A stretch of 60,000 nucleotides of DNA, taken from NCBI GenBank assembly GCA_964187785.1, contig OZ076409.1:77378001-77438000 (forward strand), read 5' to 3'. The DNA is from Amphiscolops sp. MND2022 (lineage: Eukaryota). Of the stretch, positions 1 to 27,231 are shown piece by piece (position 1 is the stretch's first letter; every line of letters starts with the position of its first letter). The notes beneath the pieces were generated by a model. That model was given only the letters and a program-made list of their open reading frames with translations, did not search any database and was not told where the DNA came from. The translations under genes were made by a program, and so were the position numbers.

Positions 1-2280
1 ATCTGTTTGCAGACAATAGACCTAACCACTATGAACAAAATTCTCAAGATTAACAAAATTTACATTTTAACACTAACAATTATACTGAAGATGATAACAC
101 CGATCAGGAAAATACAACCCAACAACAAAATCAACCTGAAAACTATAACGATAATGAGTTTACTACCCAAGAATCTACAATTTCAACACATAATCCATCA
201 CAAACAGGGACATCAACATCAGTACATACTCAATCTTTTAGAGTTCCCACTAGAGTTGTAAACCAAAGACAAACTACACATAGTCCTCAATCTCACTTAG
301 CTACATCTCCAAACCGTAATATAACTTTTAACCTTCCACATACAGATGACACACACGATGAAACCCATGATACATTACAGGATGATATTCTGACTACATC
401 TAGTGCTCAGAATACTTCTGTTAATGTTGCATCTCCAAAAAGAACTAATCCTGATTATACAAGATACATCACTCGACCTAGATATGATCCTCCATCAATT
501 CCCTCCGCCTTTCGCTCAAACAGATCGACCTCTTCCAACAACAATTTTAATGATAATCCCCAAACTTCCAATCGATATAACGATCCATTTAATTATAACT
601 TTATCCTCTATCAAATACAACTAACAATACAAATACCAACCAACATCACTCTCAAATTAATACAACTTCAACAACACAAAACCCCTTCATACAATTATCA
701 AATACCAATACTTCACAGAATATATATTCTCAAAATCAAGGAACCTCGTATACTTCCACTTCTTATTCTAATATCACACAGGATTCTCAAAGAAGACTTC
801 ATAATCCTCCACTTACACATATACCAACTGATCCTCTGTATCAAATGCATCCAAATCCAAATCCTAACCTTAATCCTAATCCATTACCACCAAATACAAT
901 CCAACATATACCTCCTCAACTCACACAACAATTAGCCCCTCCACCCCAATATTTACAAATGCCACAAGATACCTTTATACACATGTCCGCTTCAATACCA
1001 GAACCTATGAAACCTTTTGATGGTTTGGACCATTCTTATACCCCTGAAGAATATCTACAACAAGTCGAAGCAAGATTAACCTTCGCCATAGGTGAAGAAC
1101 CTCAAAATAATCCTATAAAAAACAAATCTAGGCATAACAGACGCATGGCTTACATACAATGTTCATTAACAGGAACAGCTCTCGATTGGTACACTAACCT
1201 CCATATATCATATAAACAACAATGGAATTCTTTTGTACAATTATTCAAAAAACAATTCTCATCTCAAACCACTGCTTACTACGCACAAGTAGAATCTATG
1301 TCACTCATGAAAAAGGATAATGAAACGGTTCGCCATTTCGCCTTTAGAGTACAACAATTAGTTAAAAAGGGATGGTGTTATGAAAATGCAGCTACCATAA
1401 ATCTCAAAATAATGAAATCTTTACAAAAGGGTTACCAAAAAAGTTAAAAGATTTTGCCCATAAACGACAAATTAAACATGTATCAACATTACTTGAACCT
1501 TCAATACCATTTCACACACTTGTTAGACATGTCGATTCTGAAGATATTGCTAATCAAAAAATTAGAACTAACGACTTAGCTCTAGAAATAAACAAAGTAT
1601 CGCTTGAAGATGATACTAACAAAAAAGAATTTGAACATGAAGATCAGATAATGGTTACTCAATCTGGAGACCCAAATAACAAAAGCAAACCAGCGTATAG
1701 AAAATATTGTTCCTATTGTCACAAAAATAATCATAGTATTTCAATTTGTTATCAAAAACAACGTGATGACGAATACCAGAAATACAATAACCAAAGATCA
1801 CGAACTCCTCAACAATCCTTTGTACAATATTTTCGCAGTAAACCTAATAATCCTCAAGAAAATCGAAATGACAATACAAATCCTTAATCCTCAGATAATG
1901 ATCGTAATAAATATAATCAAAATCACTATAATGATAGATACAGAAACAATGATAGATATCGTAGCAATAGTAGAGAATATTCGCAAAACAACTATAGATC
2001 AAACTCTCGACAAAGATATTATAATCGATCCCGAAGTCCGTATAGATCTCGATTTGATAATTATTATCAAAGAAGAACTCCATCTAGATCTCCATATAGA
2101 TCTCCATACAGAAATAACTCAAATTACAGATATAATTCTCGCTCAAGATACAGATCTCGTTCTCAATCACAAGGAAACTCCTTTAAACGATATAATTATC
2201 CATATAGATCTCCATCAAGACCTAGAGATTTTAGATCAAGATCTAGAACACCCTCAAGAAACAGACAACAAAACAGAATA
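1..2280 (+). pseudogene. gag: gag: long Q/N/T/P-rich N-terminus, capsid-like domain, CCHC zinc knuckle, RS/Y-rich basic tail
   Basis: MKPFDGLD...EEYLQQVE...SLTGTALDWY...WNSFVQLFKKQF (retrotransposon gag-like, ORF 845-1447). Frameshift ~1410 resumes as NEIFTKGLPKKLKDF. CSYCHKNNHSISIC (CX2CX4HX4C) at ~1708-1749. In-frame TAA 1885-1887, then RSRSPYRSR...RTPSRSPYRSPY in the same frame as pol. Confidence 0.88.
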
Positions 2281-5200
2281 AATCAAGTAGACGTTAAATC
2301 TGCAAAAGAAAATGATAGTACAAAATTTGAAATCCACACCTGTCAATTAACTGAAATAGCTAATACAATCACTACTTATAGTTGGTTTTATCCACTATAT
2401 ATTCACGCTTCTGAAACAAATGATAACATATTACCTTCAAAATTAGAAATCTTATTCCTCTTAGATACTGGAGCATCCATATCTGTTTTGAATTTACCAA
2501 CATTTCATGTAATTTCCAAACAATTAAACATCAATGTTCCAACTAACCTCCAAAACAAAAGAGCCAAAACTTTTACAGTTGCAAACCAAACTGAAGTACC
2601 AATAATACATTATATTTCGATGACCTGTTTCACTGTAGTAAATCACAAAACACGATCCTTCATTATCGATTTCGCCGTAGCAAATATCAAGTTCAACATT
2701 CTTGGAACACCCTTTTTCAAAAAACACATCCAAATTATTGATTTTCAACAAAATATTATGACGTACATAGAACAACATCCAAAGCTTCCAACAAAAACAA
2801 CATTTTCCACATTTACAGAAAAAGATTACCCATATATTTCTTACATTTATACTTATAAATGTAAGGAACCAAATCACTTTAAACCAAGGTCAGGAAAAAC
2901 CATACATTTCCCAATTAAAAACTATTCAAATCTACATTTTGAACTTGAAGATAATACAAAATTCGATCCAACCAACCCATATACATACTTCTTACAAAAA
3001 TTCAAAAATATCTTTCATTTCTTAGATATGATAGTCAATGAAAAAAGCAAAGACTCTTGTGCAACCATAATTCAAAACTTTACATCTTACCCAGCTACAT
3101 TACCACGAGGAATTATTGGATATATAGAAATACCTATTACTCAAACAACTCCTCCTCACTACAGAGTTAACGATGTAAATTCACTTATTCACTCTGTAAT
3201 ACATGCGTATCACCCTGATACCACAACTCCGATTAAACAAAATCCTTATGTAGATATGAACTTATGTACTAGGGTAACACCACAATCCCTATTAGAAATT
3301 AACAAGATAGAAATCAACGACAAAACACTTCAACTTCCTATACCTTCTGTTACTGGAAACCTTCGACCCTCAAATAAAATTCGAAAGGATTTCCCTCCAT
3401 TACCCTATTCTACAGAAAATCAACAATTCATAAAGAAGTTCAATTTTGAATACTCAGATTTAACCGATACAGAATATGTAAACCTCTGCAATATTCTGAT
3501 TGATAACCAAAATTGTTACGCCAAACATAAGAACGACGTAGGAAAGATTTCTACTCCCTTCCGAATTAGAATAAAAGATAATTGTAAACTTCACACACAA
3601 AGACCTTCTAAAGTACCTATTCACTATAGAGATAGACTAAATAAACTTTTATTAGAACTTGAAAAATACAACATCATAAAACAAATTGGTTCAACAACAG
3701 ATGAAAAACATACTATTGGAACAACATTTTTAAACCCTTTAATTATTATCCCAAAAGGAGACGCAATAAAAGTTGTCTTAGACGCAAGACATCTAAACTC
3801 AGACACTAACCAAGAACTTGAATCTTGGCCTATTGAACCTTTAGCTCCTCAATTAGCTAGAGCCAATAAAAAATACAAATCAACTATTGATCTAATGTAT
3901 GCATATGCTCATACACCATTAGACGAAGAAACAATTAAACTTACAGGATTTTCATCCGGTGACAAATTATACGCCTTTATCCGTGCATTTTATGGATTAA
4001 AGGAACTTCCAAACTTTTTTACAAAACAAATGTCAACTTTCTTTAGATCGCTTATAGACGAACGTTCTGCGTTAGTTTATATCGATGATATTTTATTACT
4101 CACAAACGAAAAACAAGAAATGTTTGAACTTATAAAAGAATTCCATACAATAGCATCTCGAGAAAATCTCAAACTTGCACCTGAAAAATCATTCTACATG
4201 TTACTCAAAGTAAAATTCCTTGGACATGAAATTGGTAACAACACAATTAAACCAATTCCATCCAAAATTGAAGCCATTAAAAGAATTCCATCACCAAAAG
4301 AAAAGAAAGATGTTATGCAATTTCTTGGCAGTGTTAACTATTATTCAAAATTCATTGAAAAACTTCATATAAACCTTAAACCATTGTATACATTACTACA
4401 TGATGATGTTAAATTTCAATGGACACCTGAATTAGAAAAAATATTTCAAAATGTTAAAAATACAATGACAGCAAACACTGAATTAACAATACCCAACACC
4501 ACGCATCCATTTTCATAACAGTAGATGCTTCGTTAGTAGGTTTAGGCGCAGTCTTGTTCCAAATGAACGAAGAAAATAAGATGAAAGTAATCTCCTATAA
4601 CTCCAGAATTCTTAACACACAAGAACAAAAACTTTCAACTTTAGATAGAGAACTTCTTGCAATAGTTTACGCATTGCAAATATATGAATTTTTGATCATT
4701 GGATCTCCTCATCCTATATACCTCTTCACAGATCACAAGCCTTTACTACATTGTTTCGCAAAGAAAGGAAATCTTAGTCCTAGATTCTATAGAGCACAAA
4801 TGCAACTAACCAAATTCTCCAAACTAAAAATCATTCATACCCTTGGAAAAAATTTAACTGTAGCAGATATGCTTTCACGAACCCTTACAAAAGAACAGCT
4901 ACAAGTACACCAATTACGACACCAACAATTACCACCTCAAATAGATTTCTCTATCATGAAAGATAATCAACTCAAACCAGTACATTATTTAGTAAAACAT
5001 GAAAAAATAAAATATAATCAAAAGAATGATTGTCATTCTATCCTTGCTGACTACGGAGACGACCAATTCTCTATCCGTATAAATAACAAAGGAGAAGAAA
5101 TACACATAAAGCCTTTAGATTCCTTCTCTTTTCAATCTATTGTTCCATTCGAATCAAAATATAAAAAGCCTACAAAAAACCAAGCAAAATCTCTTTTACA

Positions 5201-7223
5201 ACAATCGACAATTCTTAATGATACTGACATTCTTAGTGATGACGATGAAATAACTCAATCAAATAATATCCAACAACAAAACTCAGACATAGTAAAAGAA
5301 CACACCCTTGCTATACAATATCCTACCAAATCCGACTATTGTAAACAACAAGTTCCATTTTTTGATCCATCCTTTTTCAAATACAAACAATATTTTAATT
5401 ACTTCTTCCTACCAGGAGATACACAATTAACCATTGAAACAATAAAAGCTCAACCAAACCAAGATACTGTTTTACAAAAGGTTTACGAATGGATACTTAA
5501 TAATGAAAGACCCTTACAAATAGACCCAACAATTGCAGCTAATTCTTTCTTATTAGTATATTACAAAATCTTCAACCAATTATATATTAATCATGATACA
5601 AAAATTATCCACAAAGTTTATCCTAATCTTCACGATTCCAACCCGAATCAAAGAGACAAAATATGTCTACCATTTAAACTTTTCCACGCAGCTTTTAACA
5701 AACTTCATGCTCATGGACATTCAGGAATAAAATTATCCATCAAAGCTTTCAACCAATTTTACTTCATACCGTACTTGAATAAATGGATGTCAATATTCAT
5801 CCATGATTGCATTGAATGCCAACAAAATAAACATATTAACCAAAAATTACAAACTGCATCTATACAAACCTTCTCAGAAAATGCTTCATATTTTAATTAC
5901 CGAATATCAATGGATACAAAAGGACCTATAAACCCACCATCAAATCAAAATTCATACATTCATGTTATAGTAGACGCTTTTAGTCACTTTGTAGTAACAG
6001 TACCTATAAAACAAAATAATGCTCAAAACGCTGCTAACTCATTACTACATCATTGGATAACAAAACTTGGACCTCCTGTATATCTAGTTACCGACCGTGG
6101 AACAGAATACATTAATTCAGAATTTGCAAATCTTTGTACCACAATGGGAATTAGACATTCACCAAGAACTCCTTATGCACCATGGACAAATGGTTTAGTT
6201 GAAAATCAAAACAGAAATCTTGGAACTCATCTCAGACTTTTCTTACATAACACTCCAGAAAATTGGTCAACTCAAGTTCATATGTATGCTTATGCACATA
6301 ATTCACAACCACTTTCTGAATTAAACTTATCTCCATATGAAATAGTATTCCATACTATACCCAGAATTCCAATCAACTTTGAACTCAATCTCCAAAGAGA
6401 TACATATAGAAATTGTACTTCTCAATATTGTCAAGAATTACCACTTCATACACACTATGACAAATCAAATCTAAACCCTTTCTTTCATAAAGTTTTATCT
6501 AAACCAATTCCACAATGGATCTTAGCTACTGAAACTGCTATGATACAGATATACCATACAGTATATGAAAACACAAAAAGAAAGATTAATTCCTATGCTT
6601 ATTTTAACAAAACATATCACAATCCAAGACCCTTAGATATTGGTACATTTGTACTAAAAAGAAACTTTCTCCATGTTCATTTTTCCGATAAATTAAAACC
6701 TCTCAGAATTGGCCCATTCAAAGTTATTAACAAAATCTCCGACATAACATATGAAATTGTTAATCAAGATGGTTATACATCGCACATACATAGAAATCAT
6801 TTAATTCCTTATCATCCAAAAGAACCAGTTATTTTTCCTTTCCTACAACAATATAATCCTCATTTATTTAATGACTGTCATTCAAATATAAACGATTAAA
6901 TAATTAACTCTGATGAAGACAAATTTACTGACGAAGAACAAATTCCTTCCACAACATCTAATGAAGAAACGGATATACCATTCACGATTGACTTACAACC
7001 AGAATCATTTAGCCAATATTCTTCATTTCCATATAAACAAAAAGAACAAATTCCTCAAAATACCTACCTGGGTAACCAATCAGATATTCATGACTATTAT
7101 AATTTTAATAATCCACGAAGACACTCCTATAATAGATACAATTTCCGCCCACAACCAAGAAAAGACTACCGACTTTTCCTTGGTGAAAACGATATAATTT
7201 CACTTTCTCAAAAATCCTGCTGA
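2281..7223 (+). pseudogene. pol: pol: aspartic protease, reverse transcriptase, RNase H, integrase
   Basis: FLLDTGAS (DTG 2464-2472); RT YIDD 4078-4089 and KVKFLGH; frameshift ~4513, then TVDASLVGLGAVLFQ...RELLAIV...TDHKPL...ADMLSR (RH); HAHGH...CIEC, SMDTKGP, VDAFS, TDRGTEY, NGLVENQN, GPF (IN). After TAA 6897-6899 the same frame runs on to TGA 7221-7223. Confidence 0.95.
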
Positions 7224-8857: not shown

Positions 8858-11429
8858 ATGAACCAAACCACCTTTACCCTATATTTAATATACACAATAC
8901 AAGTTGTTAAATACACATATATAATACACATAGTCCACTCTTTAGTTCACCCTTCAACTGTTCCTAAAGTTGACACCACCAATTCTGAAAATCATATTTC
9001 AAACCAAGATCCTAACATTTTAAACTTGATGGTATCTCATTATGATTGTGCAAAACAAAACAACTTAAGACAATTCAGTTTATTAAATGTAGAACCATGT
9101 AAACAAGCACCCTCAGATATACAACACACAAACACCCAAGCAACAGTTTATGTTAGAGCAAAAGCTAAAAGAATATAAGCCTTTAAATGCGAAGCATATA
9201 TAAAGACTGAGAAAGTCTGGTGTTCACAAACATTCACATCTAGTAGACGATATGATCGTTCACAATGGGGACAAAACACATTAGAACTTCCAAAATTATT
9301 GGACCCTATTGAATGCAAAAAATATGATCAGATATTTAAACGCGACTGATAGCGAAGAACTAAACAACTACAATATACAAAGCTCTTTCTCATTGTTCGA
9401 CGATAGTAATTATCAAAACACAATTGAACGAATTCAGACACCATTTAGAGTAAAAAAATTGAATACATGGCATATTGGAACCTTCGTATTTGATGAAAAT
9501 TATCCTGACTGGATAGTTAATGTTACACAAAATACATACTCCAGATGTCGATCAGACCGAGAACATTTAATTACCCGACAAAGTCGGAAACTTAGAATTG
9601 TTAACACCGCAATAGTATATGACGACAAAAACAATCAATTAATACATGACGGACACATATTACCATGTTATCATTCAGACGGATTTTGTAAACCAACGAC
9701 CAAAACTCCATATACATTAACATGGTTTGATGAAAAATTTTGCCTCATATTTCAACTTCAAGAATTCCTTGGTAGAATGACACGAATCAAAGATAGATAC
9801 TGGATAGAAACCGATACCTTCATTGAAACTTCAAACATCACACAAAAACTTAAACCGAAGGAATACAAGGAACAAGATATCCTAATGTAAAAACACAACA
9901 ATCAAAAGTAGGCAATCCAAGCCTTTCTCGATTTGAAATATACCCAATTGCACAAACCTTCTGTGGAAAACCTGAACCATTATTTTCAACACAATATGAT
10001 GACATCTTTGTTACATATTTAGATGGTTTTGATATGAACACAGGATTACCAAAACCACACTCAATAATTGACCAAACAATTAGTGGAAATATAAAATATG
10101 ATGATTCAAACAAAAGGTATATATTCCCTGCATTAAATATATCAATCAATTTCGCCACTTTAGATTATGATGCCCACATTAATACAAAATTTGATTTCAC
10201 AATAAATCATGTATTTAAATCCATGACAGTACAAGAACTAAACACTCTTCATACAATATGTGAACTGGAAAGAACTCAACTATAAACGATCTTACCTGTC
10301 AGTTAAAAATCCTCAATTAGCCGGTTTTCTTTTAATTGGAAATCGTAGTAACTTTCTCTACGTTGAAGGATCTACAGCATGGCTGTATGATTGCCCTCAT
10401 TTTATATCACCACTATACAAGGCAGACAAATGCTTTGATAGAATTCCTATACACTACAGAGAAACGATAATGTATGTTGACCCAATAACAAGACAAACTT
10501 TTAACTATGCAACACCAATTGAATGGGGAAATAACCCACAAAATATAATAGAATTAGATCCAGATTCTAACGGAGATTTTTATGTGTTAACACCAGAACC
10601 ACTTAAACGAGAAGCACCACAAATGTTTAAACCTACCCAAATTAAAACAACAATCACTCCTAATACATTTACCGCCCAAGATGCCGGTATATACTCAAAT
10701 GCAGAATTAGATCATTTCTGGAATAGAGTACTATTTGCTAAACATTCTGACACAACTCTCCTATTACTTGGAAAATCATTAAGCTATGATTTCATCTCAA
10801 TGCATAATGATAAACACTCATACTCAGGACATAATCCCTATAATCATTTAAGGATTGGAGTACATGACCACTTGTTAAACCTTTTACCACTTTTTAACCC
10901 TGACTGGTTCAGTCAATCATTCATTAATTTCTTTGGATATCCATGTTTTGTTTTAACTCAATGTGGAATTTATTTTTCAACATTTCTTTTCATTAGAGAA
11001 GTTTTAACATTTTTACTCAAATTCTACAGAACAATTAGCATAAAATATAATCTCCAAAGCAACATTTCCATTTTGAGTTCAATAGCCCATGGATTTTTAA
11101 ATATAGTTACATCGGAAATGGTAACCGATTTAAACAATACAGGAAAACGAAAACGGATATATACTAAACACAAAATTACAACAAGTGAAAATGATACTAT
11201 CCTATTGCCGGAAAAAGAACTAAACAATAAACGAAGACACTCTGATACTGACTTCCCTTATTTACCTCCTAAATATTCCAGTAAGAATTCAACATTTCAA
11301 TCACCGCAAAAGACACACCCAACTAATGTAAACGATATTAATTCTCAGGACTATGACCCAATAATGTCAAATGTAATAGCTGTACCGGAAAGTCCTGCTA
11401 AAGTCTTTACAAAATTCAATCCCTCCTAG
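8858..11429 (+). pseudogene. env: env: viral fusion glycoprotein resembling chuvirus G / herpesvirus gB-type (class III) proteins
   Basis: Hydrophobic N-terminus; HYDC...FSLLNVEPC; LHTICELERTQLLTILA...NPQLAGFLL; WLYDCP; CFDRIPIHY...YVDPITR...PIECG; AGIYSNAELD; C-terminal hydrophobic TM and basic tail. These motifs match my recollection of chuvirus-like glycoproteins. Disrupted by TAA 9176 and frameshifts ~9320, ~9850, ~10297. Confidence 0.8.
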
Positions 11430-11585
11430 CTGAAAAACAATAACTTAAAATACAAATTAACCTCAGAAAAAGTTCAAAAAATTATCAACTAAATTCTTCT
11501 CGGTATTAACTTTCATTCAAACCCAAATTCTCACTCGGACCGGTCTCTCCTTTTCAACTCAACAACAAATTCACTTGCCCACCAC

Positions 11586-13466
11586 CGCAATAGATTATGA
11601 CGACAAAAACAATCAATTAATACATGACGGACACATATTACCATGTTATCATTCAGACGGATTTTGTACCAACGACCAAAACTCCATATACATTAACATG
11701 GTTTGATGAAAAATTTTGCATTTTGTAACCAACGACCAAAACTCCATATACATTAACATGGTTTGATGAAAAATTTTGCCTCATATTTCAACTTCAAGAA
11801 TTCCTTGGTAGAATGACACGAATCAAAGATAGATACTGGATAGAAACCGATACCTTCATTGAAACTTCAAACATCACACAAAAACTTCAAACCGAAGGAA
11901 TACAAGGAACAAGATATCCTAATGTAAAAACACCACAATCAAAAGTAGGCAATCCAAGCCTTTCTCGATTTGAAATATACCCAATTGCACAAACCTTCTG
12001 TGGAAAACCTGAACCATTATTTTCAACACAATATGATGACATCTTTGTTACATATTTAGATGGTTTTGATATGAACACAGGATTACCAAAACCACACTCA
12101 ATAATTGACCAAACAATTAGTGGAAATATAAAATATGATGATTCAAACAAAAGGTATATATTCCCTGCATTAAATATATCAATCAATTTCGCCACTTTAG
12201 ATTATGATGCCCACATTAATACAAAATTTGATTTCACAATAAATCATGTATTTAAATCCATGACAGTACAAGAACTAAACACTCTTCATACAATATGTGA
12301 ACTGGAAAGAACTCAACTATTAACGATCTTAGCTGTCAGTTAAAAATCCTCAATTAGCCGGTTTTCTTTTAATTGGAAATCGTAGTAACTTTCTCTACGT
12401 TGAAGGATCTACAGCATGGCTGTATGATTGCCCTCATTTTATATCACCACTATACAAGGCAGACAAATGCTTTGATAGAATTCCTATACACTACAGAGAA
12501 ACGATAATGTATGTTGACCCAATAACAAGACAAACTTTTAACTATGCAACACCAATTGAATGGGGAAATAACCCACAAAATATAATAGAATTAGATCCAG
12601 ATTCTAACGGAGATTTTTATGTGTTAACACCAGAACCACTTAAACGAGAAGCACCACAAATGTTTAAACCTACCCAAATTAAAACAACAATCACTCCTAA
12701 TACATTCACCGCCCAAGATGCCGGTATATACTCAAATGCAGAATTAGATCATTTCTGGAATAGAGTACTATTTGCTAAACATTCTGACACAACTCTCCTA
12801 TTACTTGGAAAATCATTAAGCTATGATTTCATCTCAATGCATAATGATAAACACTCATACTCAGGACATAATCCCTATAATCATTTAAGGATTGGAGTAC
12901 ATGACCACTTGTTAAACCTTTTACCACTTTTTAACCCTGACTGGTTCAGTCAAGCATTCATTAATTTCTTTGGATATCCATGTTTTGTTTTAACTCAATG
13001 TGGAATTTATTTTTCAACATTTCTTTTCATTAGAGAAGTTTTAACATTTTTACTCAAATTCTACAGAACAATTAGCATAAAATATAATCTCCAAAGCAAC
13101 ATTTCCATTTTGAGTTCAATAGCCCATGGATTTTTAAATATAGTTACATCGGAAATGGTAACCGATTTAAACAATACAGGAAAACGAAAACGGATATATA
13201 CTAAACACAAAATTACAACAAGTGAAAACGATACTATCCTATTGCCGGAAAAAGAACTAAACAATAAACGAAGACACTCTGATACTGACTTCCCTTATTT
13301 ACCTCCTAAATATTCCAGTAAGAATTCAACATTTCAATCACCGCAAAAGACACACCCAACTAATGTAAACGATATTAATTCTCAGGACTATGACCCAATA
13401 ATGTCAAATGTAATAGCTGTACCGGAAAGTCCTGCTAAAGTCTTTACAAAATTCAATCCCTCCTAG
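11586..13466 (+). pseudogene. env: 5'-truncated env copy 2
   Basis: ORFs 11813-12343 and 12507-13466 repeat env copy 1; internal ~59-bp duplication at 11661-11779. Confidence 0.9.
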
Positions 13467-13622
13467 CTGAAAAACAATAACTTAAAATACAAATTAACCT
13501 CAGAAAAAGTTCAAAAAATTATCAACTAAATTCTTCTCGGTATTAACTTTCATTCAAACCCAAATTCTCACTCGGACCGGTCTCTCCTTTTCAACTCAAC
13601 AACAAATTCACTTGCCCACCAC

Positions 13623-15445
13623 CGCAATAGATTATGACGACAAAAACAATCAATTAATACATGACGGACACATATTACCATGTTATCATTCAGACGGATT
13701 TTGTAAACCAACGACCAAAACTCCATATACATTAACATGGTTTGATGAAAAATTTTGCCTCATATTTCAACTTCAAGAATTCATTGGTAGAATGACACGA
13801 ATCAAAGATAGATACTGGATAGAAACCGATACCTTCATTGAAACTTCAAACATCACACAAAAACTTCAAACCGAAGGAATACAAGGAACAAGATATCCTA
13901 ATGTAAAAACACCACAATCAAAAGTAGGCAATCCAAGCCTTTCTCGATTTGAAATATACCCAATTGCACAAACCTTCTGTGGAAAACCTGAACCATTATT
14001 TTCAACACAATATGATGACATCTTTGTTACATATTTAGATGGTTTTGATATGAACACAGGATTACCAAAACCACACTCAATAATTGACCAAACAATTAGT
14101 GGAAATATAAAATATGATGATTCAAACAAAAGGTATATATTCCCTGCATTGAATATATCAATCAATTTCGCCACTTTAGATTATGATGCCCACATTAATA
14201 CAAAATTTGATTTCACAATAAATCATGTATTTAAATCCATGACAGTACAAGAACTAAACACTCTTCATACAATATGTGAACTGGAAAGAACTCAACTATT
14301 AACGATCTTAGCTGTCAGTTAAAAATCCTCAATTAGCCGGTTTTCTTTTAATTGGAAATCGTAGTAACTTTCTCTACGTTGAAGGATCTACAGCATGGCT
14401 GTATGATTGCCCTCATTTTATATCACCACTATACAAGGCAGACAAATGCTTTGATAGAATTCCTATACACTACAGAGAAACGATAATGTATGTTGACCCA
14501 ATAACAAGACAAACTTTTAACTATGCAACACCAATTGAATGTGGAAATAACCCACAAAATATAATAGAATTAGATCCAGATTCTAACGGAGATTTTTATG
14601 TGTTAACACCAGAACCACTTAAACGAGAAGCACCACAAATGTTTAAACCTACCCAAATTAAAACAACAATCACTCCTAATACATTTACCGCCCAAGATGC
14701 CGGTTTTTACTCAAATGCAGAATTAGATCAATTCTGGAATAGAGTACTATTTGCTAAACATTCTGACACAACTCTCCTATTACTTGGAAAATCATTAAGC
14801 TATGATTTCATCTCAATGCATAATGATAAACACTCATACTCAGGACATAATCCCTATAATCATTTAAGGATTGGAGTACATGACCACTTGTTAAACCTTT
14901 TACCACTTTTTAACCCTGACTGGTTCAGTCAAGCATTCATTAATTTCTTTGGATATCCATGTTATGTTTTAACTCAATGTGGAATTTATTTTTCAACATT
15001 TCTTTTCATTAGAGAAGTTTTAACATTTTTACTCAAATTCTACAGAACAATTAGCATAAAATATAATCTCCAAAGCAACATTTCCATTTTGAGTTCAATA
15101 GCCCATGGATTTTTAAATATAGTTACATCGGAAATGGTAACCGATTTAAACAATACAGGAAAACGAAAACGGATATATACTAAACACAAAATTACAACAA
15201 GTGAAAATGATAATATCCTATTGCCGGAAAAAGAACTAAACAATAAACGAAGACACTCTGATACTGACTTCCCTTATTTACCTCCTAAATATTCCAGTAA
15301 GAATTCAACATTTCAATCACCGCAAAAGACACACCCAACTAATGTAAACGATATTAATTCTCAGGACTATGACCCAATAATGTCAAATGTAATAGCTGTA
15401 CCGGAAAGTCCTGCTAAAGTCTTTACAAAATTCAATCCCTCCTAG
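13623..15445 (+). pseudogene. env: 5'-truncated env copy 3
   Basis: ORFs 13612-14322 and 14486-15445 repeat env copy 1; retains PIECG cysteine. Confidence 0.9.
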
Positions 15446-15790
15446 CTGAAAAACAATAACTTAAAATACAAATTAACCTCAGAAAAAGTTCAAAAAATTA
15501 TCAACTAAATTCTTCTTGGTATTAACTTTCATTCAAACCCAAATTCTCACTCGGACCGGTCTCTCCTTTTCAACTCAACAACAAATTCACTTGCCCACCA
15601 CAACTCAACTCTCAACCAGAAGACTTCAACCGGATTTTCAGTCCATCTAAAAGACGGAAATCACAGAAGTTTCTATTCCTGGAATAGATGCCACTGTGAT
15701 TGTTGATGTTTTAAACCCATCATTGACTCAGTATTCCCATATTGTAAGTACAATTTAAACTTTAATTTTACCAAACAATTTAATGGATAA
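15380..15790 (+). pseudogene. Possible accessory ORF A, or extended env tail, with Cys/His cluster
   Basis: Env frame continues MSNVIAVPESP...PS*LKNN...HLKDGNHRSFYSWNRCHCDC*CFKP...YC to TAA 15788-15790, with three in-frame stops. Confidence 0.35.
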
Positions 15791-15886
15791 AAAAGATATA
15801 ACGAAATTTTTCCTTATTATTAGAAATAATATAATCAAACGTTATAATCATTATTTTAGCTCTACAAAAACACGCAAGTTTAAATA

Positions 15887-17178
15887 ATGGAATCCTTGCC
15901 CGAAATTGATGTAGTTAACTCTAATCCCTCTGAATTGCTTGCATCCCCTTTGAATATAACTATTCAACAAAATGTTAACGAAGATAATAACTCTTCCTCC
16001 AACTCTCAAGACCCCATAGAAACTATTCCTATTGAACAAGTAGATCATGTTAACGCAAGATCTCAAAAAAGAAAGTACCCAGATATAACTGCAGACAAAC
16101 CTTTTATGGAATCTGGCGCTTGCCCTCCTTTCATAAAACCAATTAAACAAGATGAAGATAGAGATTGTGAATTAGTTCCTATTCTCTCGTCAAAACACTT
16201 CACCTTTCAATCTCAGTTAACTTCGTTATACATGATTCCAACAAAATACAAATTCATCATCAGAGAATTTAAAAATGATTATCATACATCAATTGCATCA
16301 AAATTGATTTCCCCATATGATTGGTGGTTAAACAATAAAGTGAAAATTTTCTCACTCCAATAAAACTTCCTCAGACCATCTCCATATGATCTTCGAACCG
16401 AAGAAAATGATGCAATTTTTTTGCCATACCAAATCAAAAAGGCTCACCACATGACTTATCAAAAGTTTCTTCAAAATAAAGAGCCCGATAATTATATATT
16501 CTTCAACTCCAAATATACATCGTCATTTACTTTCAACTCAGAATATTTAATAGATCATACCAAAACAAAAGGAAAAATTAGAAATTATGACCCGCTGAAA
16601 CAAAGTTTTCTCTTCCTTCCAAATGATAACCCAAAAAGACCAATCATTGTACCACAAGAATACCTCTTTCTGAACGACGATTCGTTACTACAAGAAGATA
16701 TACCTCAACATATATCTGATCCTCTTCCTCCACTTCAACATATAGCCTCTCAACCTTTGAGACTGTGAAAAATCTTATTTTCACGCAATGACCAAAAAGG
16801 GATATTCGAATAAGGAATTAATTTTCATTATTTCGCATCTGCTTTCACTTCTTACAAATGGAAATCACAAAGAATATAAAAAAGGCAAAACAAGAATCGC
16901 CTAAGAAAACCAAAAATGATATCCCCAACCACAAAGTTTTCGCCCAACAGACGAATTACAGAAATATACAGAAATTCTGAATATCATAAAACCGTATCAT
17001 TATCCGAACCGAGATATTCTTATAACAATCGCTGAAATCGTAAATACCCTTGAACAAGCTCGAAGCATAATACAAAATATCGTATTTGATACGACAAGAA
17101 TTAGCCAATCAGATTTGTGCATTCGCACATCTTTAGACGAATTCAACTACACTATTGAAAAAATGCATCGATCTTAAC
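15887..17178 (+). pseudogene. Accessory ORF B of the retroelement, unknown function
   Basis: ORFs 15887-16363 and 16421-16768 are in the same frame, separated by one TAA. Coding-like sequence continues with lesions to roughly 17180; 3' end approximate. Confidence 0.6.
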
Positions 17179-17509: not shown

Positions 17510-18163
17510 ATGTCAACTACGAAATTCTATTTTCAAAGGAACTTTATTGTAAACAAACTAATCTATTGTAGGTGAATATCGTCACAACTGCTTCTTCAGC
17601 ATTCCTTCCTTCTCTCAGGTCACCCATTCAAGAAGAATTCCGAAGTATCCTCTACAGCTTTCAACGAAATTTTCTCATTCTTCAATATGACAACTATCCA
17701 CTCTGGCGACATTGACTGCCCGATAGCTCCTTTCCTTTCAATCTCTTCAGCTCGATTGCGATCCTTGATCCTGAAAAAGCATTTAACGACATTAAATGCG
17801 CAGCTTCGAACAGAAAAAAAGGCTGACCCACATCTTACAAGGATGATATTGCTTAATATGTTCCAATTATTCCAAATAACAAGAATAAATTTCGACCAAT
17901 ATCTCCATATTCATAAACATCCTGACACTTATTCAACTCAAAAGGATGCCACTACCCAAACGGAACATACTACAATCAAACCCAAACGTTTACTACGAAC
18001 CCTATCCAATAGAATGCGTTCCGAAATGGAAAAACTACGTCTAAATTCATATTGGCCCTCAGATGACAATGATGACACTGACGAAGACCTTCAAAAAGAT
18101 CCCCCAGAAGCACTTTTAGACGATAACTACCCACACAAAACATATACTTACGTTTCCTTCTAA
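17510..18163 (+). pseudogene. Accessory ORF C of the retroelement, unknown function, acidic C-terminus
   Basis: ORF 17687-18163 extends in frame to ATG 17510 across one TGA; ends SDDNDDTDEDL...YVSF. Confidence 0.6.
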
Positions 18164-19223: not shown

Positions 19224-19492
19224 TGTACTGACCTACATTAATAACCAATAGTATTTAGATGTTTATAGAATGTTCTAGAATGTACATTTATTTGTTATTG
19301 AATGATTGTAAATCTCTACTCCCTCAGAGAGAGAAAACTAACAATCAGTATTCAGTTGACTTCCTTTTTGTTCTGCTTCTAACACCTCGAACTAGTTGTA
19401 ATAAAGTAAGCTAGCTAGCCTGTCTCTCCGCCGCTTTTAGTAGTTGTGAATAAGACCATCCAAAGAAGTAACCAACCATTAAAAGCAGCACA
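19224..19492 (+). repeat. 3' LTR of the giant element (~269 bp)
   Basis: Starts TGTACTG and ends CAGCACA (6/7 inverted match); AATAAA at 19400-19405; base composition changes here. The 5' LTR is not available for confirmation. Confidence 0.75.
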
Positions 19493-19840
19493 CTACCCGG
19501 GTCGTTAAAGTAACCCTGTTTGAGATGACCTTTAAAACCAGACCATTAAAACAGATGTTATTCAATAAGACACAAAATTGAACGAATGTTACCGTCTTGA
19601 ACGAATTTTTAGTCAAAATTACACATCTCATTTTTTGTAAGAATTTTTTACGGGAAAATGCAAGTTTTGAAGAAATTCTATCAGAATCTTTTCGACATTG
19701 TAAGAAATGTTCGACATCGTAACAAGATTGCAAAATTTGCGATTCTTGTACGTACTTGTAAGATTCTTGTAAGAAATGCAAAGTTGGCAAGAAATTCGGA
19801 AGAATTTTGCAAGATTTGTGACTCTTGTAACCTAGGGAGC
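19493..19840. repeat. MITE-like repeat with internal (TTGC/TTGT)AAGA(A)TT motifs
   Basis: Reiterated ttgtaaga/ttgcaaga/ttcttg motifs at 19635-19830; weakly complementary ends CTACCCGGG...CCTAGGGAG. Confidence 0.35.
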
Positions 19841-20198: not shown

Positions 20199-20773
20199 TT
20201 AATCGTTCAACTTCTTGTATCTTCCTAGAATGCTCTTTCTAACTTGATGACAGCCAAGAGTGTACTGCTTCGGTCCGAGAAAATGGCTACATGACTTTTT
20301 CTCCCCATTCATTGAGCATTTCTTCTTGGATTTATTAGGGAAGAATACCTGCACGTCTTCCACTGGTTTTTTGGCTCTACAGGTGGTTCCAAAGCACTTG
20401 CAAAAGCAGCAGCAAAAATTTTGTTTCATCTTTCTTCGAAACATGCGTTTTAGTTCAATTTGGATAATCATGCAGTCTGCGTTTTCTTCAATCGATCGAA
20501 CATCGCCGATGGCCAAACCAACAAGCAGGTTCATTAGAATGAGAGTGGTTAATGTACTTGTGATAAACCATTGAAAAACATAGCCAAAAAGTACTTCTGA
20601 GTCCTCAGTTAGTGGTTTTCCATCTGCAGTCAAGCGGGATGTGTCGATGTATCCATACATTGCACTTAGGACATAGAAAACGCTCGTGAAGAAACGATTC
20701 ATCTGCTCCCATCCAATGTTTCCTCGAAGCGGAGACCAAGTCAAACACTTTTCTTTCAATTCAGAAGAGTCAT
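20199..20773 (-). CDS. TRPA-like cation channel, last coding exon (pore loop, S6, C-terminus)
   Basis: ILMNLLVGLAIGDVRSIEENA is the TRPA-type S6/TRP-like helix. Acceptor TTTTTAG|AT at 20773 is phase-compatible with the upstream donor; stop at 20199. Confidence 0.85.
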
Positions 20774-22228
20774 CTAAAAACATTTTTTAACGTAATTACG
20801 AAATTTTTCTACATCTTATTGAAAACTGCCGAATTTAGATTTTTTCGACCATTTAGGTGTAATTTTGAGGCTCTTTTCTAACGTGAAACTGCAATTGACC
20901 TTCAAAAAAAGCCTGCTGCATACCGCTTTTGTTTGCTGTTGAAAGTGTTCATACGTCTAACTAGGGAAGCATTTCAAAAAAGTGCATCAAAACGTGAAAA
21001 TGGGATTTTTTTCAATTCCGATTCATCAGGGTCATTTTGAAGTATCTTGAAGCGAAACACCGCCACTCTCTCACAAGAAACGCATACTGCATAAATAATT
21101 TGTTCGTTTTTGAAAGTTTTAAACTTTCTTATCCATTAAATCTACACAAATTGCATGAAAAATGAAAAACGACATGAATTGAAAAGTTTTGAGATTTCGA
21201 GTGAAATTGAAGCATATTTCTAATAGAAAACTAGCATTTTTTTTCCTACATTTTCATCAAAAAGTTCCTTTTATCTCTTCAAAAGCTAACTGGACATCAA
21301 ATTCGAAAGTTGATGAGAAGGTGTGAAGTCTCGATTCATGAAAACGTTCCACATTTTACAAAATTTTAGCTACAAAAATCAGAAATTGTAAAATTATTTG
21401 TTTTTTTCACTACTTTGGGATGATTTTGAGACTTGTTTTGCAAAATGAAACAGCATTTGACTTTCAAAAGGGCTACTCTATCACGCGTTCGTTTGATGTT
21501 GAGTTTTTTCAATCTTCTAACGAACGAATTTTTCTGAAACTTGCAAAAATCATTTTTCGGAAAAGTTTTGGATTTTGACACTTTTGAGACTTTCTGAGAT
21601 TTAATTCTGCCTACAAAGCTACAAAGTTGTCCTTTAGAAAACGTACTCGGCTTTTTCCGGGGCAACTTGAAATTTTTCTTGAAAACGCTTCAAAAATCTC
21701 ACAATTTGCACAAAAACGTTTAAACAGTTAAATTTTTCTATTTTCCGACTCATTTGGGTCATTTTGTTTTGTTGATGCAAAACACTATACTGTCCTTTCC
21801 AAAGAGTATACTACATTGCTACTTTGTTCATCTTTCAACGTTTTAAAATTCGATGCCCACCAAATATTTTCGGTGTTAAGTTGGGACATAACTCTGTCAA
21901 AAGTAACTTTTATCTTCTCAATAAGCCTTCAGGACAAAAGTTCATTTGTTCTTGAAAGGTGTCAAAGTTGAAATCCACGAAAACGTTAGAAGTTTTTCGT
22001 ATATTGCTTTGAAGAATTAAGTTCAAAGAACTTTTGTCTTTTTAGTCAGCGCCTTTTTCCTCAAGGAAAAAAGCCCGACTATTACAGTGGGTAATTTTTG
22101 TTCAGCTGACAATCTCACTTTGAACGGTCCAATTTTCTTACAATTCTTTCAATATTACAATTTCTTACAATTCTTACTTAGCTTACGAAGTAGAATTTTT
22201 ACATCATAGAATTACATAAGAAACTGAA

Positions 22229-22520
22229 CCGGGGCGAAGGGTACCCCCTTTGAATGTTTGCGGCTCTGTGAGAATTTTTTTCCGAAAAATAGGTTTTCAC
22301 AGAAGGGTCCCCTTCAATTTTTTAAATTTTCCGACAGAATGGTTGTTGAAAAAGCCCAAAAGTGTCCCCCTTTCAGTTTTTTTCCGGCCTTATGAGACTT
22401 TGTTTTCAGTTTTTTTTTCATAAAAGGATCCCCAATTCACAAATACTTTCACATTTTGAAGTCTTTATGAGATTTTTGAGCCTCAGATTTGGCGCCTACT
22501 TGGGCCCTTCCCGGCTTGTT
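22229..22520 (+). repeat. Short interspersed non-autonomous repeat in TRP intron (possibly Helitron/Helentron-derived)
   Basis: Four ~60-bp-spaced AGGGT(A)CCCC...TTT motifs and a GC-rich 3' end GGCGCC...GGGCCCTTCCCGGCTTGTT. Confidence 0.35.
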
Positions 22521-25034
22521 GATTGTTTTGGTGTCATTGTGTTCAACCGTTTATAACAAAACTGTCTCCTCGAAATTTGTCTCCCCGAAAAACCCTGTTG
22601 CACAAGGAACTTTTTCGTTATTGAACGTGTTTAAATGTCTAATCCAAATGCGTTCGGGAAATGTTCGAAGCATTTTTCTATGGAAAAACTGCCTTCATCT
22701 CTTCCCAAAAACCTACTGCATAACTATTATCTTCCTTGTCGAGCGTTTTAAGCATTGTAAGTCACGAAATCTATCCATTCTTTGACGCAAAGTGGAAAAC
22801 AACTTTTAGAAATGTACTTTCGGAGTTTCAAGTTGTTGTTTTGGGAGCATTTTGGGCCTTTTTGGGGTCTAAGGGTCAAACTGAAAATTCCCTGAAATCT
22901 CTACAAAGTCATGTCGCTCGGAAGTAAAGTTGCGTTGTTGAACTTTTTGCGTGAAACTGTTTTATTCAGTTATAAATATGGAACATGGCAAAGTTAGGAA
23001 AACAACGCAGCTGATTCAAAGATTTTTCGTTTCCATAAGGAAAATGGGCGGAGGATAACAAACTTGACAGCAGAAATCCATTCAACTACAGTTCGATATC
23101 CAAAACAAAAGTTGCTATTCAGTAGTATATATATACCCTAGTTGACACTGCTGGAACATTTTTACATGCTGCAGGCCTGCATGCAGGGTAATTTTTTTAA
23201 TAAAACCTAGAATATTCAGTAAGGATCCAGTGGTAAATCTTGTAGAATTACACAGCAGTTTCCACTACTGCAATTAAATTTGAAAATGTTTCCTACTTCT
23301 TTTACGGACCCGATCACGTTGTATTCACACATTGATTTCTCAAATACTCATCTGATTTAATCACCGCTTCTCAAATAGGACGCTGAAGATGACGCTAGTT
23401 TGCTGTTTACATTGTGAATGAAGTTAATTTGTATTAAAATGGCGGCAAAAATGTTGACGTCTCAGCTGCATTCAAAATTAGAAGTGATGCATATTGAAAC
23501 TTGCAGAACTTCGCGGCTTGAAATTGCCGCCAAAACTTTGACGACTCTTTAAAGCAGCTTGATAAAAGTTGGCGACAACAGGGAAATATTTACGCATTAG
23601 AGTATCCGTAAGATATTTAGAAAAGCATAATAAAGTTGCTGGCAACATTAAAGTACATGTAAAAAATTCGAGCATGTTCAACAAGGGTTTATATTACTGA
23701 AGTATGTAAGTTATGTATATTACTGCATATTACTGTAAGTTTGTAAGTTACCCTCCCGAAAATTATCCAATAGAACAAGTATGCTCTTATTACAGCGGCT
23801 GCTAAAATGAAAGATTCCCACCTAATATAAATAAAACCCAATTGAATACCTTCGTCTATTTCAAAAGTGTAGAAGCAACTACCTATTCAGATCTTATGTG
23901 CATCTGTCGAAATCTTTGTTTTTGTTTTTCTCCCGGAATAAATTTGCTTGGAATCTTAGATACTTTGTTTTTGAGGCTCCGAGGTTATCAAGAAGTTTCA
24001 ATAGTTCACTTCTACTACCATTTGGGTTTTTGTTTTTGTTTTCACGTGACATAACTTCTGCATTTGTGAAGTTTAGACCTTTTTTTTCTAGAAATCTTTT
24101 CTTCCGAGACCATTCAAATTTCTGCAAGTTCTGCAATTGAACGCTCTTTTGCAGTAAATCAAACTTTTTGCACGACTTTTTGCCTGTGCGGTTTTTTAGC
24201 TTCGGAAATATTTAGTGTTTTCGGCAACTTTCCTTATTTTCTCTACCAACAAAAATTGAAACTAGCCCAAAAGAGATACAAAGCGACGCGTGGTATTGCG
24301 TACATTTATGAGAATTTCGTTAAAATACAAAGTTTGCAATAGGAGATTGCAATAGGCGTACTTAATTTTCAAACTTGTCAGGCAATTTTCTCGAAACCGA
24401 GAATAGTTATGATACAATGTTTTCGTTAAAAGTTGCGCAAGATCGATCTCATATTTCTCAGAACTTAGACCATATACGGAGTCCCTCGTTTCCTAACTTG
24501 AACAATAGTTTCGTAGGCTACATTTTAGTCTAACTCTGCCGTCAAAAATGTTTCTAATTCTGTTTTTTTTTGGGCAAAAAAGTATGGAAAATTTGTCTGA
24601 TTTTTTTTCAATTTGTAGCTCACTAATTCTCAGAACTGAAATAAGATGCGGAGACCATTCTCTCTTAGAACGTACGGTAGGCATGTACGCTATTCGTTTG
24701 AGAATCGAAGTTCCTGATATGACGCTTTGGTTTTTGCCAGAAATAATTGAAAAAGTTTTTGTCTCTCAAAAATGTTCGATATGAGCCAGAAACATTCCTA
24801 TTGGTTCCAGGCCAGTATCTGCAACGTTTTCTAGCATGTTCTGTGCCCTTTTCCTTTTTAAAACGTTTCTACTCGAAGCCAAGCGTGACATTTTGTTGCG
24901 CCTTTGTTTTTTCCAGTTGCCCTTTTTCATTCAATGTGAACTTTTAAGAATTATGATACAATGTTTTTTTGGTTCACGTAGCAAAAGTTTCTCAGTCCCG
25001 TTCTCTGGCATCACAATCAAGCTTGATAACTAAC

Positions 25035-25573
25035 CAGCAAGGATTTCAACGTTTGAAGATGTAATCTCTTTCTGTCTCAGAGCCAAACCATTTGCCGCTA
25101 GGGCGAGAATCAGCAGTACCACTGGAAGTGTAGTCTTCATCAAAGTTTTGAGGACTGCTGTTGCAAGGAGAATGTATTTTCCACAGTACATATTACTGGA
25201 CAACGATTCAAGTAAATTTAAAAGAAGAGCTAGCATCAAATTGGACATGGCGACCCCTTCTTCATCAAAGAATGATCCAGTGATCCAGTGAAAGACAAAA
25301 CTTCCGACAACAAATAATTGCAGCCAAAACTCTTTGACATGATTTTTGTACAGACAAAGCATCTTCGGCAACTCCAGAACCGAATGAATCAAAAAGAGTA
25401 GAAGAAAATAGAATAATGCGATTCCGAAATCCTGCTGCCAAGGTGCGTCGGCTTCGATAAAAGTAACTACGCCGTTACACATCACTGTAACTTCTCCGTT
25501 GAATACTCCTGATATTTGAAGCACTAGACTGGCAATCATCAGAAGAAGTTTCAACAAAGCCATTTTCCAATTT
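25035..25573 (-). CDS. TRPA-like channel exon (transmembrane segments S1-S5)
   Basis: Five hydrophobic stretches including GKYILLATAVLKTLMK...LLILALA. Acceptor TTTTTTAG|A at 25573 and donor G|GTTAGT at 25035; phases fit both neighbours. Confidence 0.85.
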
Positions 25574-26050
25574 CTAAAAAAGATATTTCACAAGCAGCAT
25601 TGGGGCAATTGCTGAGTCTAAACTGCCTAAAGTGCCACCGTATTCCCTTACAAGATTTTCATACTTGGGCTCCGACTAGTAACTTTTATTGTCTCTCGAA
25701 ACTGTGATGGATCCCAAATTAACAACAACATAGATGCAGTTTTTGTGACTCTGCAAGATGGTTAACAATGTTCATGTAATCATTGCGCAAGCTCTCTGAA
25801 AGTACCGTGATGCTTTGAGACCCTTTTTTTGGTTGGGAATTTTCACGCATGAATTATATTTTTGCCTCATTTTTTGTTAAATTGACGTCAAATTGACGAT
25901 GCTGTCTTTGGAGTATCACATTAATATTGGAGGAAGCTAACAAAACACCCTCTGAGAGACAAAAAACTATTTTGAACTAAGATACGGGGTCGGTGCACCG
26001 TTTTAATCGAATATACTATCAAAAAATGGTATGAAGTTTGAACAACTTAC

Positions 26051-26252
26051 GACTGTGAGTATATATGTAGGTATGATAGCAGAAGTGGATGTAATAAAAT
26101 TTGCTTCGATTTTGGCTCTGTGACATCAAGCTCAGATAAGTCAATGAACAACTCGGGTTTCAGTAAAGTGCAGCGTTCACCATCATTCATCCCATTTTCA
26201 AATAGTGTAAAATCCATTCTTGCTTGAAGGTTGGGGTCTTCTTCCGAGAATC
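26051..26252 (-). CDS. TRPA-like channel exon (pre-S1 linker)
   Basis: MDFTLF...ILLHPLLLSYL (TRPA LLxHPL motif); acceptor TCACAG|GA at 26252; donor TC|GTAAGT at 26051. Confidence 0.85.
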
Positions 26253-26807
26253 CTGTGACACAAACCATTCAGTGAAAACTGGGGGGGTTCAAAAAAGAGA
26301 CGCAGTGGCACGGTTTTTCGTTTTTCATATGTTCATAAAATAACACATAAGTCCATATATGCCTTTAGTGAGAATGACCCCCAGCCTTGATAAAGTAGTT
26401 ATGTAAGTTAAACGTTTCTACAGAAATATGGTTCCAAGGGGCAATTTTTTTCAAAAAGTGCAACTTTAGTCCGTTTTTGCAAAGAGCTCAGACTTGTTGC
26501 TGTGGAAACAGCAAATAACGTTTTGAAATCTCAGTTTCAAATATAAATGTGTGAAAACCGGAAAAAAAGTACAAACTTTTGTTTCTCAATAACTTCAACT
26601 CGAACTGAAATGCAATGTGTTGCTTTTTATATAATTAATTCAAGATTCATTTCTTGCCTCTAACTTTTCATGATTTTCATGAGCATAATAATTTTACGGT
26701 GAGTGTAATGTGTCTGTCAACTTTGGTCAAATATTATCAACTAGCTTTTATGAAGATTTTTGAAGCTACTTATTTGAGTAATTTGTTTGATCGTGTACGA
26801 AACTTAC

Positions 26808-27231
26808 CTTCATATTGTACTTGACTGTCGAGAATCTTCAAAACTGTCGATGGGAAGTTCTCTAAAATAGTGGGGAAAACTTTTTTGATGGTCTGCATTG
26901 AGATGCCAGGCTTTTCATCCAACTTCTTATCAGAGCAAGGTATGTTTCCGGGACAATGTGAATTGGAAGCACTTTGAGACGAAACGTCGACTGTAGGGAC
27001 GGTATTGTTGTGTTCCGGTAGATCGTTGAGTAACAGCAGGGTTTCCACCATAACCGAAGTTCCTGCTTTTTTAATTAATTCAGGGTTACTGAGAAGACAT
27101 CTAGGATTTGATGCCACAATTTCAGCTACTTTTCCGACGTTATTGGTCGAGATTAGATCATCTAAGCTGACCTCAGATGATGCTAGGGTGTTGTAGGTTT
27201 CAAGCAAAGAAACTGTTTTCTGAAACAAAAT
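26808..27231 (-). CDS. TRPA-like channel exon (post-ankyrin linker)
   Basis: ILENFPSTVLKILDSQV resembles the TRPA linker. Donor G|GTAAGT at 26808 is in phase with the next exon. Acceptor at 27231 or 27219 (ambiguous). Confidence 0.75.

Follow-up and report, generated by a model that had tools for sequence, protein, structure and literature searches.

A predicted class III, gB-type envelope gene on a Ty3/gypsy element of Amphiscolops sp. MND2022

Envelope genes of the HSV/gB type can be found on Ty3/gypsy elements across many phyla, where they are described as being as common as F-type envelope genes (Chary and Hayashi, eLife 2026; PMC13524379, in the sections available). The same sections list 114 gypsy elements with a chuvirus-like glycoprotein. 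The first filter of that survey was set at 1 kb for the interval between pol and env and at 10 kb in total, and later steps took in 3-5 kb beyond pol. The available sections also recount that Drosophila gypsy spreads from somatic cells to the germ line.

A second group of mobile elements with such a glycoprotein is Anakin, which consists of mosquito BEL/Pao elements with a chuvirus-derived glycoprotein (Dezordi et al. 2020; PMC7642597, available in part). A follow-up from 2023 describes Gypsy fragments beside chuvirus-like glycoproteins and, in the sections available, no clear capture (PMC10084718).

The locus described here lies in a stretch of 60,000 nucleotides (G000:C1:77378001-77438000), referred to below as the window. 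It carries an LTR element with an env gene of this type downstream of pol.

Anatomy of the element and its env copy

The carrier of env is a Ty3/gypsy element and not a BEL/Pao element. By Pfam, its pol has gypsy-type domains in the order PR-RT-RNaseH-IN of a Ty3/gypsy LTR retrotransposon, and among named PDB sequences its RT matches Ty3 Gag-Pol best (E 2e-25). Peptidase_A17 and DUF1759, which we take to be the BEL-specific Pfam domains, were found neither in the gag and pol of the window nor in any of the six pol stretches scanned next to other env families. The pol frame of the window copy is broken near 4500 and 6900.

The window copy begins about 2.9 kb upstream of the window, with its 5' LTR at L013:7117-7385. 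The two LTRs differ at 3 of 269 bp, and an identical 4-mer stands beside both as a target-site duplication (19493-19496 on the 3' side). Two other copies of the element measure 18,460 and 18,488 bp and have LTRs that are 100% and 99.3% identical, again with 4-bp duplications. LTRs of 269 bp that start with TG and end with CA, flanked by 4-bp duplications, are therefore present in 3/3 copies checked, and the LTR pairs of these three are 98.9-100% identical. As in other Ty3/gypsy elements, a PBS-like site starts with TGG and a purine tract lies at the 3' LTR. A pattern search for the primer tRNA gave 3 matches, against 5 in the control, and none of them was a tRNA.

Table 1. Features of the element in the window, and of related loci in the same genome
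Feature	Position	Strand	Basis or remark
3' part of the long gag region, broken in the window copy	54..1887	+	Retrotrans_gag E 4e-7
pol, Ty3/gypsy type: protease, RT, RNase H, integrase with SH3-type tail	1888..7223	+	Pfam RVT_1, RT_RNaseH, rve, Integrase_H2C2, SH3_Tf2-1
Ser/Pro/Thr-rich accessory ORF between pol and env, 489 codons	7386..8855	+	no known family
env, gene of a predicted class III (gB / chuvirus-G-type) glycoprotein	8858..11429	+	3 frame breaks; open natural copy with 96% DNA identity
Second env tandem copy, 5'-truncated (from about codon 254), broken	11583..13466	+	
Third env tandem copy, 5'-truncated; one break common to the other two units	13620..15445	+	
Post-env accessory ORF, in pieces in the window; about 430 codons in other copies	15884..17177	+	no known family
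Last accessory ORF, 195 codons stop to stop	17576..18163	+	no known family
3' LTR, 269 bp, TG...CA, preceded by a short purine-rich tract	19224..19492	+	LTR pair comparison
TRAF-like ORFs with C-terminal MATH	L050:2236-3006, L052:2218-3264, L054:2081-2899, L058:2398-3420		after env, in three sister gypsy families

The gag frame is very long. About 560 low-complexity residues rich in Asn, Thr and Gln come before the Retrotrans_gag domain (L016:77-3691, minus strand; 54-935 in the window), and a second env-bearing family of the genome, family B, has a similar long gag frame. At the junction of gag and pol, an overlapping frame of 209 codons (window 1652-2281) is open in the window and in three other copies. 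Its dN/dS is above 2, so it is likely to be a shadow of the Arg/Ser-rich main frame. One copy of the element is inserted in a tandem satellite array with a repeat of about 248 bp (L017/L019, G000:C3, about 13.33-13.35 Mb).

The original prediction described env by a set of short motifs, which are present on the + strand. YDC (9041), FSLLNVEPC (9074), CELER (10259) and NPQLAG (10308) are followed by CFDRIPIHY (10431), VDPITR (10476), AGIYS (10683) and ELD (10704). Together they are distributed, in differing frames, over four open stretches in 8858-11429. One further motif was misread: the predicted IEC after VDPITR is IEW (10518) in this copy, and IEC occupies that place in the third tandem unit alone (14534). 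After AGIYS..ELD, where a membrane-spanning segment had been predicted, comes a stretch of only moderate hydrophobicity (about 10940-11020; best Kyte-Doolittle mean over 19 residues, 1.59), and the putative signal peptide is likewise only moderately hydrophobic (1.31). The predicted frameshifts could be located as well. Compared with an open natural copy (L006) that encodes 858 residues, three breaks interrupt the frame, near 9320, 9850 and 10300.

The window copy is thus unable to encode a full Env. Its piece at 10242-11426 alone matches Pfam PF24664 (E 2e-11, above the curated cut-off), so the env signal is not due to chance; for the three N-terminal pieces no Pfam family was matched.

Two other regions of the window stand apart from the element. 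Between 37500 and 45600 there are four copies of a unit of about 1.66 kb with inverted repeats and a minus-strand ORF of 140-156 codons. This ORF looks FLYWCH-like, by our assumption, and the array is probably derived from a DNA transposon. On the minus strand at 20199-27231 lie exon-like frames of a host membrane protein, presumably resembling a TRP channel; three pieces of these frames gave no Pfam match at E<=0.1.

Fold class, selection and possible role of Env

The natural open Env of 858 residues matches PF24664 (Monjiviricetes_fusion) at E 9e-25. This is the sole Pfam family at E<=10, and no F-type (baculovirus F) family was found at that threshold. A profile search with Env gave 2,840 relatives at E<=0.001. 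Sequence and profile searches of the PDB with env gave 0 matches at E<=10, the ESM Atlas gave no usable match, and a pattern scan of IMG/VR gave 56 matches, none of which was confirmed.

An AlphaFold2 model of residues 79-695, based on 97 natural sequences, has a pLDDT of 77 and a pTM of 0.61 (md8c65cd8576a). It is beta-rich: long beta hairpins and a small beta domain are joined by a central helix of 46 residues, within which CELER lies, and by helices at the C-terminal end. The hallmarks of class III fusogens, namely PH-like domains, a long central helix and a beta crown, can be recognized in the model, at low global TM-scores. All 12 cysteines of the modelled ectodomain are conserved: where the long rows (45 of the 97) cover them, 93-100% of these rows retain each one.

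Foldseek found 99 matches to the model in the PDB at E<=0.001, and all 32 that were listed are herpesvirus gB, the best at 8e-10. BFVD yielded 163 matches at the same threshold, and the best-ranked named entries are G proteins of a chu-like virus, Tacheng tick virus 4, Drosophila unispina virus 1, a xinmovirus and a rhabdo-like virus, with E 4e-21 to 3e-19 and 12-14% identity; herpesvirus gB appears at rank 48. Global TM-scores are 0.16-0.23 to gB in the PDB and at most 0.41 in BFVD, with an rmsd of about 20 A. Because these scores are low, the class III match rests on local structure and on the sequence profile, and not on superposition of the whole chain. The blank sequence searches of the PDB and the only moderate hydrophobicity of the anchor and signal segments also weigh against the assignment.

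VIA-align, an independent aligner, was applied only to a first, weak model, built from 28 close sequences (pLDDT 43). It gave Chandipura G (Z 7.4), HCMV gB (7.0) and HSV gB (6.0), the best of these scores being within the range that the tool calls common. The top nine were class III fusogens, including rabies G and other gB chains, and PH domains came next.

The original prediction had placed Env with gB and chuvirus G rather than with baculovirus F, and PF24664 together with Foldseek of the PDB and BFVD upholds this placement. It had also named class I or II fusogens or non-viral proteins as the best structural hits to be expected if it were wrong. Neither fusogen class came near the top in Foldseek or in VIA-align, and the three methods agree on class III. 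Judged by the model, Env very probably belongs to the class III fusogens in its fold.

The 1.07 Gb genome was searched with the C-terminal part of env. From 8,747 first-look candidates 109 were scored, all 96-100% identical, and in 42/109 the reading frame stays open, free of stops, over at least 860 codons. Because the 109 are the best-scoring matches, this fraction overstates intactness, and matches are not equal to copy numbers. Uninterrupted env ORFs are thus present in multiple copies of the family and absent from the window copy. The element family is young and very abundant, with many open env copies.

Comparison with a sister subfamily gives dN/dS of 0.065-0.097 for env (dS 0.32-0.34), similar to 0.07-0.09 for pol. 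In two other pairs of families the env value is about 0.02-0.03 (dN 0.03-0.04, dS 0.9-1.7). These ratios show purifying selection on env. Among copies that are nearly identical, pN/pS comes to about 0.3-0.6, from few changes, as expected if copies decay after insertion.

The proteins gB, VSV G and gp64 are trimers that refold and insert the loops of domain I into the target membrane. By analogy with them, Env would span the membrane in type I orientation and act as a trimer. It would refold around its long central helix, and its domain I loops would enter the target membrane. The intact Env of the family is, on the evidence of the model, probably a gB-like class III fusion protein that coats particles and allows entry into other cells, and the window holds a frame-broken, partly triplicated env. 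If Drosophila gypsy is a guide, particles produced in the soma would reach germ-line or stem cells by infection, and new copies would arise in this way.

Accessory ORFs, sister families and alternative readings

Three accessory ORFs accompany env. The Ser/Pro/Thr-rich ORF upstream of it has dN/dS of 0.04-0.14 against the sister subfamily and a weak match upstream of env in family B. The ORF of about 430 codons downstream has dN/dS of 0.09-0.13, and an ORF that is 41% identical follows env in family B. The 195-codon ORF is 82-85% identical in the sister subfamily. None of the three has a Pfam match, and the 430-codon ORF has no usable match in the ESM Atlas. All three are orphans, and for two of them the measured dN/dS indicates purifying selection.

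The genome holds further env families, which are 54% and 25-30% identical to the family of the window. At least five gB-type env lineages (25-60% identical; open frames of 712-952 codons) were observed at loci L023-L046, each lineage group being present in many near-identical copies and lying beside gypsy-type pol where this was checked. A family C env element (L047-L048) has 509-bp LTRs that are 99.2% identical, and a coiled-coil-like ORF without a Pfam match after env.

A TRAF-type MATH ORF comes after env in the sister families D, E and F. The domain was recognized in D and E by Pfam (E 8e-22) and in F by similarity, and the best PDB match of the ORF is TRAF5 (E 2e-14). It is present at 14/14 of the examined env loci of the D and E types. 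No match to the RING family was found in these TRAF-like ORFs. It is possible that they act as decoys of TNF/Toll signalling. A broader and more tentative reading is that the genome hosts a radiation of still-infectious complex gypsy "retroviruses" with a class III env and accessory genes, in which the RING-less TRAF-like proteins of the sister clade may serve as immune-signalling decoys. If true, this would be a parallel, in an invertebrate-type retroelement, to the accessory genes of lentiviruses and foamy viruses.

The state of the window copy, the use of Env and its origin can each be read in another way. Along with a spacer, the 3' 70% of env is present twice more in tandem (11583-15601), which brings the window copy to 22.4 kb compared with about 18.5 kb in the two other copies; the original prediction makes no mention of this repeat. 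That the breaks and the triplication are assembly or read errors in an ordinary single-copy locus is unlikely. The breaks are small indels, and some are present in many genomic copies, as this reading would allow; however, the three units differ mutually by 6-13 substitutions in 1.84 kb, have one frame break in common, and are joined at a microhomology of 3 bases (CAC). Since the break is common to all units, the tandem repeat arose after it, likely by template slippage or unequal crossing-over at the microhomology. A programmed frameshift at the shared break was also considered and rejected, since other copies read through in one frame. Assembly errors would in any case concern the window copy alone, and not the identity of env. 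As for what the protein does, selection indicates no more than that Env is used. It might be kept for cell-cell fusion, for junctions that pass unenveloped capsids, or for blocking the receptors of rival elements. The transmission route of gB-type elements is called unknown in the available sections of PMC13524379, and a furin site of the form R-x-K/R-R was not found in Env. On the other hand, such sites are not always retained in gB-type Env according to the same sections, and the gag-pol-env order, full ectodomain, putative membrane anchor and tail form the usual layout of an enveloped retroelement. A role outside particles is therefore considered improbable, and entry by enveloped particles remains the preferred reading.

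The original prediction further inferred that a Ty3/Gypsy lineage had captured a class III fusogen. A gypsy carrier with a class III env was indeed found; a distinct capture from chuviruses is not supported, because the G families tie, and the combination is no surprise after PMC13524379. A recent, lineage-specific capture of a chuvirus (Jingchuvirales) G by this gypsy family, in the manner of Anakin, would fit the chu-like G among the top BFVD matches and a cysteine spacing in domains I-II that resembles mosquito BEL rows by eye. Yet the xinmo-like and rhabdo-like G score equally at the same 12-14% identity, so that no single donor or direction of transfer is indicated. Gypsy-type pol adjoins the env families in all six pol stretches scanned, including those only 25-30% identical in env, and trees of env and of pol for eight families have a common split, {A, A2, B} versus {C, D, D2, E, F}, with support of 100/100 (the env tree has no internal resolution and carries a long-branch warning). 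In a 34-row FastTree, which has long-branch warnings and an unsupported root, the env families of the genome fall into three separate groups among unnamed outside proteins. The trees took in no named viral sequence. The 2023 study cited above, in its own data as far as available, likewise describes no clear capture by Gypsy. Recent capture from a chuvirus is accordingly given very little credence. As judged from these trees, the pattern fits an old and mostly vertical co-inheritance of env and pol.

Comparison with described systems

The element can be assigned to the HSV/gB-type errantiviruses, an operational term of PMC13524379 (available in part), since it combines gypsy pol with an env whose predicted ectodomain is gB-like. 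It shares with them the Ty3/gypsy pol, the gag-pol-env order, LTRs, many near-identical copies and conserved cysteines. It differs in its size of about 18.5 kb with 269-bp LTRs, in an ORF under selection between pol and env, and in two ORFs after env. The spacing of eight cysteines in domains I-II is similar, by eye, to the C1a planarian and mosquito BEL rows of the supplement. A search of the eLife supplements for four env motifs found none of them; the alignments consulted there cover only domains I-II, so this is uninformative. Acoel names were not found in the available text or in seven supplements, and a new host phylum is not claimed.

Anakin has the same type of glycoprotein and a cysteine spacing that is similar by eye. 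In contrast, the present env sits on a Ty3/gypsy element, and the material compared showed no close link to any named chuvirus. The G proteins of Monjiviricetes (chu-, xinmo-, nyami- and rhabdo-like) and herpesvirus gB are alike in that PF24664 scores above its cut-off and they supply the best fold matches. They stand at 9-14% identity to Env, which is encoded by a retroelement, and no gH/gL-like partner was identified here.

The Env of the Drosophila gypsy and ZAM errantiviruses also follows pol and has a presumed role in cell entry. It is of class I (baculovirus F-type), whereas no F-type family or fold is among the Pfam or top fold matches of Env here. Finally, planarian Burro is a large gypsy element with env and accessory domains, including MATH/TRAF-C, which recalls the sister families (PMC6431247, in the sections available). 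It exceeds 30 kb, and its env lies in frame between gag and pol and is described there as gypsy-Env-like. The env described here is a separate ORF after pol and is predicted to be of class III. Because Burro is a precedent for MATH/TRAF-C, the TRAF/MATH ORFs are not claimed as unprecedented.

Since gypsy elements with a gB- or chuvirus-type fusogen have been published before, the present locus sets out no new principle and adds one more family. That family can be a useful case, as it is young and abundant, with strong selection on env and at least five env lineages in one genome. It is suited to questions such as how gB-type elements get into cells in the absence of gH/gL, and in which direction class III fusogens moved between retroelements and RNA viruses. 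Compared with the systems above, the less ordinary features are the size of the element, its conserved accessory ORFs and the TRAF-like ORFs present in sister families.
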